NCBI GenBank assembly: GCA_041660605.1
Contig: JBAZWB010000003.1
Span: forward strand, 82,680-146,679
Length of the DNA: 64,000 bases
Direction: 5' to 3'
Source: Patescibacteria group bacterium
GTDB lineage: Bacteria > Patescibacteriota > Patescibacteriia > UBA10025 > JAHIVO01
The notes beneath the pieces are model-generated. The model was not told the origin of the DNA, did not search any database, and was given only the letters and a program-made list of their open reading frames with translations. Of the stretch, positions 30,719 to 39,697 are shown piece after piece. The position numbers were made by a program, and so were the translations under genes. Numbering within the stretch: the stretch's first letter is position 1; every line of letters starts with the position of its first letter.

Positions 30719-31738
30719 TTATATCAGCTCCCAGTTCGGATCCGGCTCAAGTTTTTTCCAGGTAGTGAAGTTTTTTTTCTGCGCCTGGAAATATCCGGCA
30801 ATAGCGATCATGGCGGCATTGTCCGTGCAGAGTTTCAAAGGCGGAAAATAGTACCCGACTCCCGGAAGATTATTTTTAATCTCTTCACCCAGTTTTTCCC
30901 TTAATGGCCCGTTAGCCGCTACCCCGCCGGCCAATAAAACATTTTTTACCCTGAAGGTTTTGGCGGCAGCCAGGGTTTTGGAGATGAGGACGTCGGTGAC
31001 CGCCTGCTGGAAGCTGGCGCAGATGTCGGCGACCGGCGCTTTTTTATTGTTAAACTCTTTTTTTAAAAGATACAGCACGGAAGTTTTCAGTCCGGAAAAG
31101 CTGAAATCGAAATTCTTATAATTAATCATCGGCCTAGGAAAATCAAAAGCCGTTGGGTTCCCCTTTTCCGCCATGGCCTGAACTTTCGGTCCGCCGGGAT
31201 AGCCGAGGCTCAGGAGCTTGGCCACCTTATCAAAAGCCTCGCCGGCCGCGTCATCCCGCGTCCGGCCGATCAATTTATAGTTATTGTGTTTTTTCATCAG
31301 AATCAATTCAGTATGCCCGCCGGAAACTACCAGGCAGAGAACCGGAAATTTTATTTGCGGGTTATTATACCAATTGGCGTAGATGTGTCCTTCCATATGG
31401 TTGAGGCCGACCAGCTTTTTATCCCAAAGATAGGCCAGCGTTTTGGCTGCCTGCGTGCCCACGCGCAGGGAGGTAATCAGGCCAGGCCCTCTGGTCACGG
31501 AAATGACGTCAATTTTGGCAGGCTTGATTTTTGCCTGCCGTAAAGCCACGTCAATGACCGGAACAATGTTTAATACATGCTGGCGGGCGGCCACTTCCGG
31601 CACTACGCCGCCATACAGGCTGTGGGTTTTTATCTGCGAAGCGATGATATGGGAAAGGATTTTTATCTTTCCCCGTTCGCCTTTTATAATGCTGGCGGCG
31701 GTTTCGTCGCAGGAGGTTTCGATACCTAGAACTATCAT
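30719..31738 (-). CDS. tsaD: tRNA N6-adenosine threonylcarbamoyltransferase
   Basis: N-terminus MIVLGIETSCDETAASII is the Kae1/TsaD signature. 339 aa. Confidence 0.9.
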   Translation of the reverse strand: MIVLGIETSCDETAASIIKGERGKIKILSHIIASQIKTHSLYGGVVPEVAARQHVLNIVPVIDVALRQAKIKPAKIDVISVTRGPGLITSLRVGTQAAKTLAYLWDKKLVGLNHMEGHIYANWYNNPQIKFPVLCLVVSGGHTELILMKKHNNYKLIGRTRDDAAGEAFDKVAKLLSLGYPGGPKVQAMAEKGNPTAFDFPRPMINYKNFDFSFSGLKTSVLYLLKKEFNNKKAPVADICASFQQAVTDVLISKTLAAAKTFRVKNVLLAGGVAANGPLREKLGEEIKNNLPGVGYYFPPLKLCTDNAAMIAIAGYFQAQKKNFTTWKKLEPDPNWELI

Positions 31739-31922
31739 ATTAACAGTAAATAATTATATTATGCAGCCGTATGTTCAGACTTCCGCCATAGGCGGACCCC
31801 GCTGGCTAGCGGGGCTATGCCTAAAATTATCATATATATTATTTCTTTCTGATGTTATTGTAGCATAATCAAGCTAAATTAGGGTTGAGGCCGGATTTAT
31901 AATGATAAAATCGTCCTACTCT

Positions 31923-33737: not shown

Positions 33738-34130
33738 TTATTTTTTTGCAGCGTTGATTTTCGCGGCAATCTTTTTTTCCAGATGGTCCATAGTGCCCAC
33801 AAAAGCGTCTTCAATATCGATATCGTATTCCTTCGCCAATATTAAAATCGACCAGAGGCAGTCGGCCAATTCGTATTTCAATTCATTGTCGATATTTTCA
33901 ATGTCACGCAGCCCGTCTTTGGCCATGACCAGTTTCATGAAGTCGCCAACGTCGCTGACAAAACCCTGGGCAATTTCCGATCGCGTCCACGCCCGTCCGT
34001 GTTTTTTCTGCTCCAGCACTGCAAGCTTTCCCCGGATTTCAATTGCCCGTTTTGTAAGTTCTTTGATATCCATATCATTTGGAAATTTATAAGTTGTGCT
34101 TTTTAGCCCCACGGGGAATTTTCGCGTCAC
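33738..34130 (-). CDS. MazG-like nucleotide pyrophosphohydrolase
   Basis: LADCLWSILILA and EIRGKL resemble the all-alpha NTP-PPase (MazG/dCTPase) motifs. Confidence 0.65.
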   Translation of the reverse strand: MTRKFPVGLKSTTYKFPNDMDIKELTKRAIEIRGKLAVLEQKKHGRAWTRSEIAQGFVSDVGDFMKLVMAKDGLRDIENIDNELKYELADCLWSILILAKEYDIDIEDAFVGTMDHLEKKIAAKINAAKK

Positions 34131-34560
34131 CCCGCCCTTGGGCGGGGCTCCTTGTCCTGGTCAGCAGTGATTTAAAAACTTCTGTCCCGGGGCGTCACGG
34201 CGGTTCCCGCATCGTGCCGCCCGCGCTCGCGGCCGCGACTGAAGCAGTTCAGTCGCTTTTTTCCGCTCGCGCCCGTTCGATTCCCCTCTATTTTTATTGT
34301 GCCTACATTCTTAAAAGCTATTTGAGTATTTAATACTGGTTCATTTTAGCCCCACGGGGAATTTTCGCGTCACCCCGCCCATGGGCGGGGCTCCTTGTCC
34401 TGGTCAGCGCCAAATGCTCCTGATGGTCGCATTTGTCGGCGTTCGACTTACCCTTCGACTTCGCTCAGGGTTGTCTCACTTCTGACCGTTCGATTCCCCT
34501 CTATTTTTATTGTGCCTACATTCTTAAAAGCTATTTGAGTATTTAATACTGGTTCATTTT
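34101..34560. repeat. two tandem units (about 245 and 214 bp) each carrying a copy of the tRNA-Glu 3-prime 16-mer and a conserved 74-bp tail
   Basis: tagccccacggggaat occurs at 34104-34119, 34347-34362 and in the tRNA at 38703-38718. The 74-bp segment at 34273-34346 matches the one at 34486-34560. Each unit also has the hairpin ccccgccc(tt/at)gggcgggg. Confidence 0.7.
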
Positions 34561-34694
34561 ATGGCTTTACAACGAAGTACGAACCTATTTCAAAGAGAAT
34601 TATTGATTTGATTGCGGGGCGGAAGGGGGGTTTGGGGGGAATTCCGCCCCGCATCCCTCTGCGCCTCTTTCTTAAAAAGCCAGAGATTTTTCGT
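34560..34694. repeat. 135-bp inverted repeat, left arm
   Basis: Perfect reverse complement of 36866-37000 (135 of 135 by manual alignment). Confidence 0.85.
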
Positions 34695-34724
34695 TGCGCC
34701 GATTACGGCGCGCGCCGCGGTGAT

Positions 34725-35051
34725 TTATTTAGTATTTTGTTTACCCTCCCATTTGAATATAAATATAGAGATTACCATAAACACCCCAACAATTAAATCA
34801 ATTACACTCCAAACCTCACGATTGAAATGGATAACGATAAATGGATTAAAAAGTACTGCAAGAAATCCAAAAATCCAAATCCATTTTTCTTTTTTTGTTT
34901 CATACGCCATCCATGCAACATACATAGAACTGGTAAATACCACGAAGCGTAAAAGTGTAAACAGTCCATAAGGTAAACCATCAATTAAAGCTACAAAAAG
35001 AAAAGCGGCGGCAATAAGTAATGCTACATTTTTCTTTCTATTCTGTTTCAT
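34725..35051 (-). CDS. small membrane protein
   Basis: Trimmed to the internal Met (MKQNRKK). Three TM helices. Lies inside the IR-flanked cassette. Confidence 0.4.
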   Translation of the reverse strand: MKQNRKKNVALLIAAAFLFVALIDGLPYGLFTLLRFVVFTSSMYVAWMAYETKKEKWIWIFGFLAVLFNPFIVIHFNREVWSVIDLIVGVFMVISIFIFKWEGKQNTK

Positions 35052-36865: not shown

Positions 36866-37000
36866 ACGAAAAATCTCTGGCTTTTTAAGAAAGAGGCGCA
36901 GAGGGATGCGGGGCGGAATTCCCCCCAAACCCCCCTTCCGCCCCGCAATCAAATCAATAATTCTCTTTGAAATAGGTTCGTACTTCGTTGTAAAGCCATA
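36866..37000. repeat. 135-bp inverted repeat, right arm
   Basis: Reverse complement of 34560-34694. Contains the internal palindrome gcggggcggaa...ttccgccccgc with a G6TTTG6 centre. Confidence 0.85.
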
Positions 37001-37186
37001 CCACTATCATACTTTCCAAAAATTTACCGATTTTCTCTCTGGCGCTGGATATGGCAAACCAGTGTTTTTGTGGGCGAAATTCTGGGATAGGGCGGACTTT
37101 CCCGAAACCCAGGACGAGGTTCGCCTCCCGCGCGATTTTGAAATTCTGTCTCGTTTTCTTTTCTTAATTACTAATTATTAAACTAT

Positions 37187-38740
37187 ATGAACAACCAAAA
37201 GTTTTTTCTCTACGCCCGCAAGTCCACCGACGTAGAAGATAAGCAAGTTTTGAGCATTGAAGCGCAGATCGTTGAATTGCGCACCTTTGCTAAAAAGGAA
37301 AGTTTAACAATAGTAGAGGAATTAGTGGAAAAGAAATCGGCCAAAGTGCCCGGACGCAAGATATTCAACTCAATGTTGGACAGAATAGCGAAAGGCGAAG
37401 CGCAAGGAATTGTGAGCTGGCACCCTGATAGATTGGCGCGCAATTCGGTGGATGGCGGGCGAATCATTTATCTGCTGGATACTGGCCAGCTTGCGGCTTT
37501 GAAATTCCCCCAATTCTGGTTTGAATCAACGCCGCAAGGAAAGTTTATGCTAAATATTGCCTTCGGACAGAGCAAATACTATGTGGATTCGCTATCAGAG
37601 AATGTAAAACGCGGATTGCGCCAAAAAGCCAGACGAGGAGAGTATTCGGGCATAGCCCCGCTTGGCTACATCAACGATTTACGTACCAAAACTGTGGTGG
37701 TAGACAAAACGCAGGCGAAAATCGTGAGCCAGGCGTTTGAACTGTACGCCCAAGGCAATTCTCGACTAGAGGATATTTCCACCTTTTTGGCCCAACATAA
37801 TATAACCTCGCGCAATGGCAAACCACTAAAACGAGACAGAATTTCTTTTATCCTTTCCAATCCTTTTTATGTTGGTTTCTTTACTTATGCCAAGGAATTA
37901 TATGAAGGCAAGCACCAGCCAGTCATCTCAAAGAAAATTTTTGACCAAGTGCAAATAATATTGAAACAAAAGGGCAGACCGCACCACAAAACCAAGAACG
38001 AGCCGCAACCCTATTGCGGTCTGCTGCGGTGTAACACCTGCGGAATGGGTATAACTGGCGAATACAAGACAAAGCACCAAAAGAACGGTAACGAACACAA
38101 TTATATTTACTACCACTGCACGAAAAAGAATAAGGCCATCAAATGTCACGAGCCATGTATTCGCCAAGAATCATTGGATGAACAAATTACTCCTTTACTG
38201 CAAAAATTTTCTTTGAGATCTGATTGGGCGGACAGCTTGTTACATCAACTAGAGCAAGACACTTCCGAGTCCGCCCACTCCTCTGTCGCTTTTGTTCAAG
38301 AGACGGAAAACACTATCCAAGGTATCGAAACCAAGCTCCAGCGACTTTTAGACAGCTATCTGGAGCAAGATATTGACCGAGACGCGTACCTGGAGAAGAA
38401 GGCTGGCCTCTTAGGAGAGAAAAAGTCCCTCACGGAGAAAATGACCCGTCTTGAACAAAAGCGGACTGGCTGGGTCGAACCGATGCGGAAATGGATAAAT
38501 ACGGCAGCAGAGCTGCCGAAAATCGCGCGGGAGAGCGACCTTTTTCTCCGAAAGGTCGCGGCCAAAGAAATCTTTGGCTCGAACCTCGTCCTGGGTTTCG
38601 GGAAAGTCCGCCCTATCCCAGAATTTCGCCCACAAAAACACTGGTTTGCCATATCCAGCGCCAGAGAGAAAATCGGTAAATTTTTGGAAAGTATGATAGT
38701 GGTAGCCCCACGGGGAATCGAACCCCGATTACCACATTGA
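37187..38740 (+). CDS. large serine recombinase (resolvase/integrase family)
   Basis: Catalytic LYARKSTDVEDKQ (Ser in the YxRxS motif), a recombinase domain, zinc ribbon CGLLRCNTCG and a coiled coil. The 3-prime end reads into the tRNA-Glu gene. Confidence 0.88.
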   Translation: MNNQKFFLYARKSTDVEDKQVLSIEAQIVELRTFAKKESLTIVEELVEKKSAKVPGRKIFNSMLDRIAKGEAQGIVSWHPDRLARNSVDGGRIIYLLDTGQLAALKFPQFWFESTPQGKFMLNIAFGQSKYYVDSLSENVKRGLRQKARRGEYSGIAPLGYINDLRTKTVVVDKTQAKIVSQAFELYAQGNSRLEDISTFLAQHNITSRNGKPLKRDRISFILSNPFYVGFFTYAKELYEGKHQPVISKKIFDQVQIILKQKGRPHHKTKNEPQPYCGLLRCNTCGMGITGEYKTKHQKNGNEHNYIYYHCTKKNKAIKCHEPCIRQESLDEQITPLLQKFSLRSDWADSLLHQLEQDTSESAHSSVAFVQETENTIQGIETKLQRLLDSYLEQDIDRDAYLEKKAGLLGEKKSLTEKMTRLEQKRTGWVEPMRKWINTAAELPKIARESDLFLRKVAAKEIFGSNLVLGFGKVRPIPEFRPQKHWFAISSAREKIGKFLESMIVVAPRGIEPRLPH

Positions 38741-38774
38741 AAGCGTGGTGTCCTAACCGTTAGACGATAGGGCC
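38700..38774 (-). tRNA. tRNA-Glu (anticodon UUC)
   Basis: Hand-folded. Acceptor GGCCCTA/TGGGGCT with 2 G-U pairs, anticodon arm CCACG-CTTTCAA-TGTGG, T-arm CGGGG-TTCGATT-CCCCG, encoded CCA. Close to E. coli tRNA-Glu. Confidence 0.8.
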
Positions 38775-38779
38775 ATAAA

Positions 38780-39034
38780 TCATTCGAAGCTGTATTTAAT
38801 GGATTGTTTAAGAAAATCTCGTTGGCGACCATGATGCTTCAGATTCCATTCTCTTTGCGTTGCATCACGTTTATCACGATATCCTTCATAATAAATCAAT
38901 ATCCACTTGCCAGCAACATTCGTTGATTTTGTTTTACCAATATTATGTTCTTGAACACGTTGGCGTATGCTCTTGGTATATCCAATATAAAGCTTTTTAT
39001 TCTTAGAATTTTGTAATATATAAACGTAATACAT
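38780..39034 (-). CDS. GIY-YIG nuclease family protein
   Basis: N-terminus YYVYILQNSKNKKLYIGYTKSIRQRVQEHN is the GIY-YIG motif. 84 aa. Confidence 0.8.
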   Translation of the reverse strand: MYYVYILQNSKNKKLYIGYTKSIRQRVQEHNIGKTKSTNVAGKWILIYYEGYRDKRDATQREWNLKHHGRQRDFLKQSIKYSFE

Positions 39035-39049
39035 ATCTCAGCCAGTTAT

Positions 39050-39082
39050 CTGCCCATAGGGCAGACCCGCCCTTTGGGCGGG
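39050..39082. repeat. two adjacent GC hairpins (ctgcccatagggcag and cccgccctttgggcggg)
   Basis: Perfect short palindromes. The second is the same type as the hairpins at 34128 and 34372. Confidence 0.5.
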
Positions 39083-39238
39083 GACGATAGGGCCGTAAAT
39101 TTGATTAGTAAAAAAATTTTAGCTTGGATTTCATTAAAAGTCAAGATAGAAGCCCAGTCTGCCAGTTAGAGAATATTTGTCAAAAGATTTTTTGTATATT
39201 ATAATATAGACACTTTTATCACTAATCACCCTCCAAAT

Positions 39239-39697
39239 ATGAATAATAACGACAAGAAATCCTCAGTAAAGGTTAATGAATACGACATTGTCAAAGAACT
39301 GCAAAAAGAGAACGCGATGCCGGAAAATCCTGAAAACAAAACCTGGCTTGATGAAGAGGATTATGGTGGCCAGCTGGCCGTGGATGTTTACCAATCTGAG
39401 GGCGAAATAGTGATCAAATCCACTATTGCGGGAGTCAGGCCGGAAGATATCGATATTTCCGTAAATAACGATATGATTACTGTTCGCGGAAAAAGGGCCA
39501 AGGATCATGAAGTGAAAGAAGAAGATTATTTTTACCGTGAGTGCTATTGGGGAGGCTTTTCACGCTCGATCATCCTGCCCTGCGAGGTAAAAGTGGACAA
39601 GATCAGGGCGACCATGAAGAATGGCGTTTTGACGGTGGTCCTGCCAAAAGCCTCTAAAGCCAGCAAGGTGACAGTGGTAAAAGTAAAGGAAGAGTAA
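39239..39697 (+). CDS. Hsp20/alpha-crystallin family small heat shock protein
   Basis: Alpha-crystallin domain (VDVYQSEGEIVIK...GVLTVVLPK). Confidence 0.85.
   Translation: MNNNDKKSSVKVNEYDIVKELQKENAMPENPENKTWLDEEDYGGQLAVDVYQSEGEIVIKSTIAGVRPEDIDISVNNDMITVRGKRAKDHEVKEEDYFYRECYWGGFSRSIILPCEVKVDKIRATMKNGVLTVVLPKASKASKVTVVKVKEE

Follow-up and report, generated by a model that had tools for sequence, protein, structure and literature searches.

In a 64,000-nucleotide stretch of the metagenome-assembled genome of a Patescibacteria group bacterium (GenBank assembly GCA_041660605.1, contig JBAZWB010000003.1, positions 82,680 to 146,679 of the forward strand; hereafter the window), a small open reading frame (ORF) encoding a GIY-YIG nuclease domain abuts the 5' end of a tRNA gene and is bracketed by two copies of a short direct repeat. 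The tRNA gene, an intact host tRNA-Glu(UUC) at 38700-38774 on the minus strand, was identified by ARAGORN and by Rfam (tRNA, 61 bits) and is the sole tRNA of the window. The ORF occupies 38780-39034 on the same strand, encodes 84 amino acids followed by a TGA stop, and matches Pfam PF01541 (4.5e-17); 5 nt lead from its stop codon to the 5' end of tRNA-Glu. The repeat is an 18-mer, GACGATAGGGCCATAAAT, at 38763-38780, with a second copy at 39083-39100 that differs by one mismatch (A/G), giving a direct repeat of the form GACGATAGGGCC[A/G]TAAAT at a spacing of 320 bp. No third copy with up to 3 mismatches was found in the 64-kb window, and dinucleotide-preserving shuffles with two or more matches to the 18-mer numbered 0/100. 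The proximal copy (minus strand) consists of tRNA nt 1-12 (38774 to 38763, antisense on the plus strand) and 6 leader nucleotides (38775-38780), the sixth of which is the last base of the GIY-YIG stop codon. The distal copy, also on the minus strand, likewise joins nt 1-12 (39094 to 39083) to 6 leader nucleotides, and we read it as the displaced native 5' end of tRNA-Glu. A sequence-only reading of this stretch had proposed the 18-bp duplication, had recognized its first 12 nt as the antisense of the tRNA 5' end, and had placed the 84-amino-acid ORF and two tight GC hairpins between the copies; each of these observations was borne out.

The two hairpins form a unit at 39049-39082 on the minus strand. 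Each is 17 nt long, with a GC stem of 7 bp and a loop of 3 nt (TCTGCCC-ATA-GGGCAGA at 39049-39065 and CCCGCCC-TTT-GGGCGGG at 39066-39082). They adjoin each other and the distal repeat copy, and no other hairpin pair of the same sequence occurs elsewhere in the window. A 14-nt spacer at 39035-39048, TAACTGGCTGAGAT on the minus strand, leads from the hairpins to the ATG. It starts with TAAC (plus-strand positions 39045-39048), which is the continuation of the tRNA, nt 13-16; because this post-hairpin TAAC resumes the tRNA sequence, the displaced piece spans tRNA positions -6 to +16, and the 34-nt double hairpin splits it after nt 12. The rest of the spacer is a degenerate D-arm remnant together with a weak ribosome-binding region. 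The insertion, which the sequence-only reading had put at the 5' boundary of the tRNA, thus lies inside the tRNA gene instead, after nt 12-16, with the hairpins within the displaced piece. About 20 nt upstream of the displaced fragment, a consensus scan found a sigma-70-like promoter on the minus strand, TTGACT-17-TAAAAT (39116-39144, read from 39144 to 39116; 10/12 matches), presumably the original tRNA-Glu promoter and now driving both cassette and tRNA. A sequence scan detected no promoter-like or terminator-like site between the ORF and tRNA-Glu. The minus-strand order is therefore atttacGGCCCTATCGTC, CCCGCCCaaaGGGCGGG, TCTGCCCtatGGGCAGA, TAACTGGCTGAGAT, the ORF from ATG to TGA, and (a)tttatGGCCCTATCGTC-TAACGG..., the last being the tRNA. 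Rfam searches of the whole window at the gathering threshold and of 38500-39300 at E<=5 returned the tRNA only, so the hairpins and the fragment match no RNA family, and no inverted repeat encloses the ORF in the window.

This arrangement recurs at orthologous loci. The GIY-YIG gene, tRNA-Glu and a divergent Hsp20-DUF3006-VanW block are syntenic in locus L003 (GIY-YIG protein 80% identical), in loci L004-L006 (62%) and on the contig that encodes P0002, the closest GIY-YIG homologue (82%). The full layout is repeated in L003, L100 and L004 (80%, 78% and 62% identical, respectively): a 12-nt copy of the tRNA 5' end leads into the same pair of hairpins, after which come a short spacer, the ORF and an intact tRNA that begins 0-5 nt past the ORF stop. 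The upstream copy follows the local tRNA sequence, as seen in L004, where both the intact tRNA and the upstream copy have a C at tRNA position 6 and where the post-hairpin fragment is a perfect match to tRNA nt 13-23. Over the window, L003, L100 and L004, the segment ATGGCCC[T/C]ATCGTC and both hairpins are near-invariant, while divergence is seen in the leader and in the spacer of 14-17 nt that precedes the ATG. The window and L003 differ at 1 position in the ~47-nt fragment-plus-hairpin block, compared with synonymous changes in ~45% of the conserved codons. Since the block is near-invariant while its flanks diverge, it is, judged from these four loci, more tightly constrained than the synonymous sites of the ORF and under purifying selection. 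Compared with its L003 orthologue, the ORF itself has 37 codons unchanged, 31 that differ synonymously and 17 that carry a replacement, and this excess of synonymous changes indicates purifying selection across substantial divergence. The same layout in so diverged a relative also contradicts the idea of a recent insertion; the window locus is one old member of a family, vertically retained or re-acquired. Two further observations were made at these loci. In L004 (3919-3968), the stem of hairpin 1 is kept and a 29-nt AT-rich insertion lies in its loop, so that hairpin loops may themselves be insertion sites. Locus L002 (a contig from SRR6484324) carries a 100%-identical GIY-YIG gene in an independent assembly that breaks inside the tRNA, 30 nt past the stop codon, which is consistent with repeats or structural variation at the tRNA confusing assembly.

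We then compared 80 metagenomic loci anchored on Hsp20. All comparison sequences in this work, these included, are contigs from metagenomes or metagenome-assembled genomes (MAGs), some of whose taxon labels are possibly wrong. By this comparison, the divergent tRNA-Glu(UUC) is the ancestral neighbor of Hsp20. Nine loci have empty sites (L094, L095, L102, L103, L130, L133, L143, L146 and L151), with a TTGACx-17-TAnAAT promoter ~20-55 nt before tRNA +1 and no ORF, hairpins or fragment. At other loci, the tRNA-Glu is accompanied by different GIY-YIG lineages (40-43% identical in L088, L090, L104, L106, L126, L149 and L150; 30% in L089), and the Hsp20 proteins of these loci are ~63-73% identical to that of the window. 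In L088, L090, L106, L126 and L149, the double hairpin sits in the anticodon loop rather than the D loop, and the fragment extends from nt 1 to ~41-50. Hsp20 and GIY-YIG identities can be incongruent: L095, with a 77%-identical Hsp20, is empty, while L100, with a 66%-identical Hsp20, carries a 78%-identical GIY-YIG gene. That gene has decayed, having a TAA at codon 2, and decay is also seen in L093 (a frameshift) and L109 (a 35-amino-acid remnant), with L162 and L125 being ORF-less relics that retain the fragment and hairpins. Such polymorphic alleles fit the pattern of invasion, decay and loss expected of a selfish endonuclease gene. An exact-sequence look-up with the window Hsp20, made for same-species empty alleles, returned no match. 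Throughout the flank comparison, a GIY-YIG gene without the duplication was never seen and the empty sites lacked both, so the repeat does not reduce to a conserved tRNA leader. One locus without a GIY-YIG gene, L157, has a relic, GGCCCTATCG, ~45 nt upstream of a tRNA-Glu that starts GCCGCCATCG, and the relic matches the other tRNA-Glu sequence type. This single case hints that a cassette once replaced the 5' end of the gene or the whole tRNA; as to a foreign versus a native terminus in the window cassette, its two repeat copies differ at just 1/18 nt.

The association with tRNA genes extends well beyond tRNA-Glu. A scan of one genome per GTDB species gave at least 541 loci, of which 80 were fetched, with 75 ORFs having enough downstream sequence; the loci come mostly from Patescibacteria classes, with some from Omnitrophota, Elusimicrobia and others. 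A same-strand tRNA starts within -30 to +30 nt of the stop codon for 28/75 ORFs and within 150 nt for 35/75, and the adjoining tRNAs cover 13 amino-acid classes. In ~1-Mb genomes with ~45 tRNAs, adjacency by chance would be expected at roughly 0.1%. In 28/49 tRNA-type loci, the region preceding the ATG can be aligned to the tRNA of that locus, a count that depends on an alignment-score threshold set without a null distribution; these fragments start at -7 to +2, end at nt 11-50 and stop 2-30 nt before the ATG. For 14/35 loci, the longest exact substring shared by the two sides lay beyond the 99th percentile obtained with permuted locus pairs. The sequence-only reading had described a target duplication that includes tRNA sequence. 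The duplication stands, but a target-site duplication (TSD) of fixed length does not: the start is always anchored at the tRNA 5' end while the other end varies, and the duplicated piece behaves, on this comparison, like the displaced end of a gene. Downstream of the intact tRNA, L007, L008, L011, L149 and L150 have fragments of its 3' portion with anticodon- or T-loop hairpins. In L021, the ORF lies between two copies of the 5' part of a pseudo-tRNA-Asp, both with a double hairpin, upstream of the real tRNA; because the flanking copies here are pseudo-tRNAs, the 5' duplication accompanies the insertion process itself, beyond any selection restoring a functional tRNA. Separately, stacks of pseudo-tRNA pieces with D-, anticodon- or T-loop double hairpins occur on either side of intact tRNAs (L007 1031-1190, L021 1436-2085, L011 1830-1972 and L008 487-600). 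L021 has two nested 5' fragments. In L011 the tandem 3' fragments all bear one and the same hairpin pair, and the stacks suggest repeated rounds of invasion.

GC hairpins are a regular companion of the family, occurring upstream of its ORFs at 1.03 per 130 nt, versus 0.15 in control windows (seven-fold). They follow tRNA nt 8-13, 21-25 or 31-38, positions that fall within the D and anticodon loops or at their margins. Across loci we counted 37 double hairpins, almost all of them in tRNA-like loops. Their form is strict (YCNSCC-nnn-GGSNGR, twice; 15+15 to 17+17 nt), and stem sequences vary between loci with complementarity retained. The set was picked by a finder that accepts Watson-Crick pairs only, so the independent evidence lies in the recurrence and regular shape of the hairpins and not in the percentage paired. 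For the same reason, the 71 double-sided changes among 25 double hairpins, against 20±3 in shuffles, are circular as covariation, as is the absence of G-U pairs from the stems. Identity to the tRNA is 95% before the hairpins versus 56% after them, a comparison biased by a selection that required at least 8/10 pre-hairpin matches. We considered whether the hairpins are palindromes left by hairpin opening of broken ends and rejected this, as their arms are unrelated to the flanking tRNA sequence. The window holds a second, intergenic double hairpin at 31782-31814, TCCGCCataGGCGGA plus CCCCGCtggctaGCGGGG, upstream of a minus-strand gene (30719-31738) and with no tRNA-like sequence adjoining.

Members of the family also occupy other stable-RNA genes: RNase P RNA (L012, L019, L023, L041, L069 and L085), 23S rRNA (L046) and 16S rRNA (L084). 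The Rfam match to RNase P runs across the ORF in L019 and L041. ORFs without an adjoining tRNA are enclosed by GC-rich inverted repeats, such as CCCCGCCCTTT...ORF...AAAGGGCGGGG, and no clear TSD was found at the RNase P RNA and rRNA-gene members that have enclosing inverted repeats. Because the arms of these inverted repeats match those of window hairpin 1, that hairpin may be an ORF-less derivative. A neighbor-joining (NJ) tree of the proteins has clades for tRNA-Ser, for tRNA-Cys, for tRNA-Glu (three separate clades), for Ala/Val/Ile and for RNase P/rRNA. Pairwise GIY-YIG identity averages 50.2% for the same target and 44.1% for different targets (0/2000 permutations), and the nearest GIY-YIG neighbor has the same target RNA in 32/56 cases, which indicates that, at the level of these alignments, GIY-YIG lineages track their target RNA. 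As a side observation, four unrelated genomes (L014, L020, L044 and L047) share a conserved leader-like sequence ~10-90 nt past an inverted-repeat-enclosed ORF, in the order GGGGTTTAATTCGC, hairpin, GCTCATTAAAGGAG; it has no Rfam match at the gathering threshold and may be an unannotated, structured 5' untranslated region that the element also targets.

The protein is small, and its motif residues are conserved. The PF01541 match spans residues 1-71, and Y3, Y5, Y16, G18, R26, H30, E50, R61 and E62 are invariant across 43 homologues. An AlphaFold model (predicted local distance difference test score, pLDDT, 90.9) gave as best Foldseek matches 1zg2 and yeast Slx1 (7cq2-4), at a TMq of 0.65-0.67, and also matched the I-TevI catalytic core. 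By sequence, the best PDB matches are the UPF0213 proteins BH0048 (1zg2, 4e-6) and EF2693 (1ywl, 3e-3), followed by an SLX1 homologue. In the alignment of 43 homologues there is no invariant Asn after E62, the C-terminal Asn of the UvrC/homing-endonuclease lineage, and minimal GIY-YIG domains of this kind have been placed in a Slx1/YhbQ/YazA lineage (PMC7017083). The sequence matches and the predicted fold thus identify the protein as a bare catalytic GIY-YIG domain of the UPF0213/YhbQ/YazA/Slx1 lineage. It has none of the DNA-binding regions (NUMOD, Zn finger or helix-turn-helix [HTH]) of classical GIY-YIG homing endonucleases, only the catalytic domain, and it scores 21 bits against the NCBIfam group I intron endonuclease model, whose cut-off is 56. 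The sequence-only reading had set a mobile cassette against a housekeeping YhbQ-type gene; this was a false dichotomy, in that the protein's sequence and predicted fold are those of a minimal UPF0213/YhbQ/Slx1-type domain. The literature has treated UPF0213/YhbQ proteins as predicted repair nucleases with vertical inheritance (PMC1564403). A profile search retrieved 6,267 50%-identity cluster representatives at E<=1e-10.

Taking these results together, we consider it probable that 38763-39100 represents a selfish GIY-YIG cassette that sits within the 5' portion of the tRNA-Glu gene and carries a replacement 5' terminus for the gene it interrupts. The suggestion of a small homing or mobile GIY-YIG cassette, made from the window alone, gains support from the polymorphic tRNA-Glu/Hsp20 loci, the 13 kinds of tRNA and the members in RNase P RNA and rRNA genes. 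The cassette would consist of the hairpins, a promoterless ORF and a replacement tRNA 5' end that rebuilds the interrupted tRNA gene, and the 18-nt repeat would be the overlap of the displaced native terminus with the replacement terminus. Read-through from the tRNA promoter would express the ORF, making cassette and tRNA-Glu one ~400-nt precursor, from which RNase P cleavage at tRNA +1 would free the tRNA and end the mRNA 5 nt past the stop codon. Spread between genomes would occur by recombination, with the conserved tRNA sequence on both sides serving as portable homology, and would probably be stimulated in a homing-like manner by a break or nick from the GIY-YIG nuclease. Two variants of spread can be envisaged: homing-type double-strand-break repair, or excision followed by single-crossover integration in the pre-hairpin core. 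As for the double hairpin, it would serve the cassette in cis, whether as a site for the nuclease or for recombination or as a structure at the 5' end of the mRNA.

More tentatively, a wider proposal is possible. The minimal UPF0213/YhbQ/Slx1-like GIY-YIG genes of Patescibacteria and neighboring phyla, together with their GC hairpins, might constitute an undescribed class of mobile elements that colonizes tRNA, RNase P RNA, 16S and 23S genes. The protein would then be a structure-specific nuclease acting on hairpin or cruciform DNA, the double and single hairpins would be cis sites and non-autonomous derivatives resembling miniature inverted-repeat transposable elements (MITEs), and RNA-gene sequence would again provide portable homology.

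Several points weigh against the selfish-cassette interpretation. Expression and movement are read from anatomy and comparison only, and site-specific cleavage by an 84-amino-acid protein without a DNA-binding domain is doubtful. In the filled allele, the intact tRNA keeps the presumed insertion site, ATCGTC|TAAC, which leaves homing-type self-immunity unexplained, and simple homing does not account for the first creation of the layout at a new tRNA type. The Hsp20 and GIY-YIG identities of the window and L003 are congruent (79% and 80%), so that the cassettes of the window, L003 and L004 could have come by vertical descent; the perfect identity of the fragment would in that case require selection or gene conversion rather than recent re-insertion. 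The NJ tree was built on 84 amino acids and has no support values, and the GTDB set, collected by means of a single N-terminal peptide pattern (MYYVY...), is biased toward this subfamily.

Among competing explanations, the one that survives best, although we think it unlikely, is that the unit moves as a small excised and possibly circular DNA that integrates by a single crossover in the tRNA 5' homology, in the manner of a Campbell insertion or an integron cassette. Recombination or cleavage would then take place at the double hairpin, cut by a structure-specific GIY-YIG nuclease, the 18-nt repeat would be the crossover core, and excision between the repeats would restore an empty tRNA. Such a process predicts the whole layout, namely a truncated copy, an ORF directly after it and a stop codon adjoining the -x position of a complete copy, with a few leader bases common to both copies. 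It also fits the empty sites, which are intact tRNAs, and a fold nearest to that of the structure-specific Slx1, and it does not require self-immunity. A pre-hairpin part identical to the tRNA and an often degenerate post-hairpin part would likewise follow, but that comparison is biased by locus selection. On the other side, no circular junction or excision product was seen, 12-18 nt of homology is little for RecA-dependent recombination, closing 320 bp of double-stranded DNA into a circle imposes strain, and the element does not encode a recombinase.

It is very improbable that the ORF is an ordinary YhbQ-type repair or housekeeping gene co-transcribed with tRNA-Glu, with the repeat and hairpins forming a conserved leader or attenuator. 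The reputed vertical inheritance of the UPF0213/YhbQ/Slx1 repair nucleases (PMC1564403), the retention of the locus in three related lineages and the strong conservation of the fragment-plus-hairpin block would all suit such a gene. However, this explanation is largely refuted by close relatives that have the tRNA and promoter without the leader repeat, hairpins or ORF, and it is further opposed by the decay of copies, by family members inside RNase P RNA and rRNA genes, and by the presence of different GIY-YIG lineages at different internal positions of the same tRNA. Rather than a stable single-copy gene following the host phylogeny, we found empty, filled and differently filled alleles and GIY-Hsp20 incongruence.

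We give still less credence to a giant tRNA intron, in which the upstream 12 nt would be the genuine 5' exon and the hairpins, the ORF and the second 5' copy, as far as nt 13 of the downstream tRNA, would be removed in RNA. The hairpins do lie at loop positions, like archaeal introns, and in the minimum free energy (MFE) fold predicted for the 414-nt precursor the upstream fragment is paired to the 3' acceptor strand of the tRNA, but that fold is a choice between two equivalent pairings and was not relied on. A complete canonical tRNA is encoded downstream, so splicing is unneeded; the fragments end at nt 11-50, never with a matching 3' exon after them; and neither a group I intron nor any other Rfam intron family was found in 38500-39300 at E<=5, leading us to reject both group I and bulge-helix-bulge introns. 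A DNA transposon with a TSD was also rejected, since the duplicated length varies (~11-50 nt) and is anchored at tRNA +1 and no inverted repeat encloses the ORF. Weakest of all is the view of the repeat as an att-type scar of a neighboring large serine recombinase element at tRNA-Glu, to which a 517-amino-acid serine recombinase gene adjoining the tRNA 3' end and a 16-nt copy of a tRNA 3' segment 4.3 kb away might point. That element sits on the 3' side of the tRNA with its own repeats, while the cassette duplicates the opposite end of the tRNA, which also sets it apart from an integrase-mediated island. The view is refuted by L003, which has the 5' duplication, hairpins and GIY-YIG gene and no recombinase within 3.5 kb, and by the family as a whole, in which dozens of other tRNAs show this 5' architecture.

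The closest parallels to a gene-terminus-carrying cassette are the mobile ORFs (mORFs) of fungal mitochondria, which carry a replacement gene terminus in Allomyces atp6 and in Glomus atp6, atp9, cox2 and nad3, the Glomus atp9 mORF being a GIY-YIG ORF (PMC3630166). As in the window, these are free-standing endonuclease ORFs inserted in a host gene with a copy of the gene terminus: the gene stays whole, the native terminus becomes a displaced duplicate, and presence among relatives is patchy. The mORFs are co-transcribed with the host gene, as the window cassette would likewise be. Unlike the fungal mORFs, which bring a replacement 3' terminus, the window cassette is a mirror image, with the 5' terminus displaced upstream and keeping the promoter; its host is a bacterial chromosomal tRNA gene, its protein a bare 84-amino-acid domain, and its unit includes a structured double hairpin.

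A second parallel is SegB of phage T4, a free-standing GIY-YIG homing endonuclease in a tRNA cluster (PMC2330249). With SegB and the Seg, I-TevI and I-BmoI genes, the window cassette shares a GIY-YIG gene beside tRNA genes, the lack of an intron and presence/absence polymorphism; preferential inheritance with flanking sequence, as in Seg-type genes, is a further likeness. Lineages tied to their target (0/2000 permutations) and the coexistence of empty and filled alleles resemble classical GIY-YIG homing endonucleases. In contrast, the Seg and Tev enzymes exceed 200 amino acids, have DNA-binding domains and belong to the UvrC/homing-endonuclease lineage. Neither a tRNA-fragment duplication nor a hairpin module has been described for them, and cleavage by the window protein is only predicted. 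The protein is instead like UPF0213/YhbQ/YazA (1zg2 and 1ywl) in being a minimal ~85-100-amino-acid domain with the same motifs and no conserved C-terminal Asn. Unlike UPF0213/YhbQ as a vertical repair gene, the family members analysed here act like inserts that sit in stable-RNA genes and move horizontally.

Compact hairpins are also familiar from other genomes. Double-hairpin elements of fungal mitochondrial DNA are said to have been described by Paquin, Laforest and Lang in 2000, and GC clusters in fungal mitochondria and hairpin repeats resembling repetitive extragenic palindromic (REP) sequences or MITEs in bacteria are well known. The hairpins described here resemble the fungal elements and GC clusters as short GC-rich tandem hairpins at many sites, within or beside genes among them, that occur with mobile endonuclease ORFs. 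They differ from the fungal double hairpins in their strict form and in their location in the D-, anticodon- and T-loop positions of displaced tRNA pieces, and the likeness meant here is one of form. Intervening sequences (IVSs) and introns in rRNA genes of the candidate phyla radiation (CPR) were reportedly surveyed by Brown et al. in 2015, and Leptospira and Coxiella have ORF-containing 23S IVSs. To our knowledge, the published CPR rRNA inserts encode LAGLIDADG enzymes or nothing recognizable. Relatives of the window ORF inside 16S, 23S and RNase P RNA genes are like these IVSs, the GC-rich inverted repeat corresponding to the IVS stem, while the tRNA version differs in using a gene-end duplication and no enclosing stem. 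A full-text literature search whose coverage left out most subscription journals turned up neither a GIY-YIG cassette that combines double hairpins with a duplicated tRNA 5' end nor a GIY-YIG ORF within RNase P RNA.

On the 3' side of tRNA-Glu lies a different set of features. The 517-amino-acid large serine recombinase has Resolvase, Recombinase and Zn_ribbon domains, and its gene (37187-38740), which extends 41 nt into tRNA-Glu in antisense, is flanked by a perfect 105-bp inverted repeat (36999-37103 and 38600-38704). The recombinase C terminus falls in the right arm, as do the terminal 5 nt (TACCA) of tRNA-Glu. The inverted repeat could reflect an invertible segment, a rearrangement made by the recombinase or an assembly artefact. 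A 16-nt segment of the tRNA-Glu 3' part, ATTCCCCGTGGGGCTA (38703-38718), is repeated directly at 34104-34119 and 34347-34362. These repeats lie in two imperfect ~243-nt copies recognized by eye, although Tandem Repeats Finder reported nothing on 33900-34800. The hairpin CCCCGCCC-nn(n)-GGGCGGGG, whose arms are those of cassette hairpin 1, precedes each 16-nt repeat (34130-34147 and 34373-34390). The ~4.3-kb stretch from the repeats to the tRNA contains the recombinase gene, an HTH gene, genes for proteins of 257 and 131 amino acids and a DUF6804 gene, and it looks like an island integrated at the tRNA-Glu 3' end. If so, tRNA-Glu would be parasitized on both sides.

The wider meaning concerns the protein family and the genes that host it. 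A large, uncharacterized family of UPF0213/YhbQ-like "repair nucleases" would, at least in ultrasmall bacteria, be reassigned to selfish elements of stable-RNA genes; if this is true, much of a "repair" family of >6,000 50%-identity clusters would be selfish, and many tRNA genes in these genomes would be transcribed through a parasite. For a nuclease lacking a DNA-binding domain, the double hairpin would offer a compact candidate cis element. In Patescibacteria MAGs, assembly and the annotation of tRNA, RNase P and rRNA genes can also be misled by cassettes of this kind and by their tRNA fragments and hairpins. For the organism itself, the layout suggests a route by which a mobile gene may enter an essential tRNA gene without destroying it, with the 5' end rebuilt and the promoter taken over, and expression of the host tRNA-Glu would then depend on read-through of the parasite.

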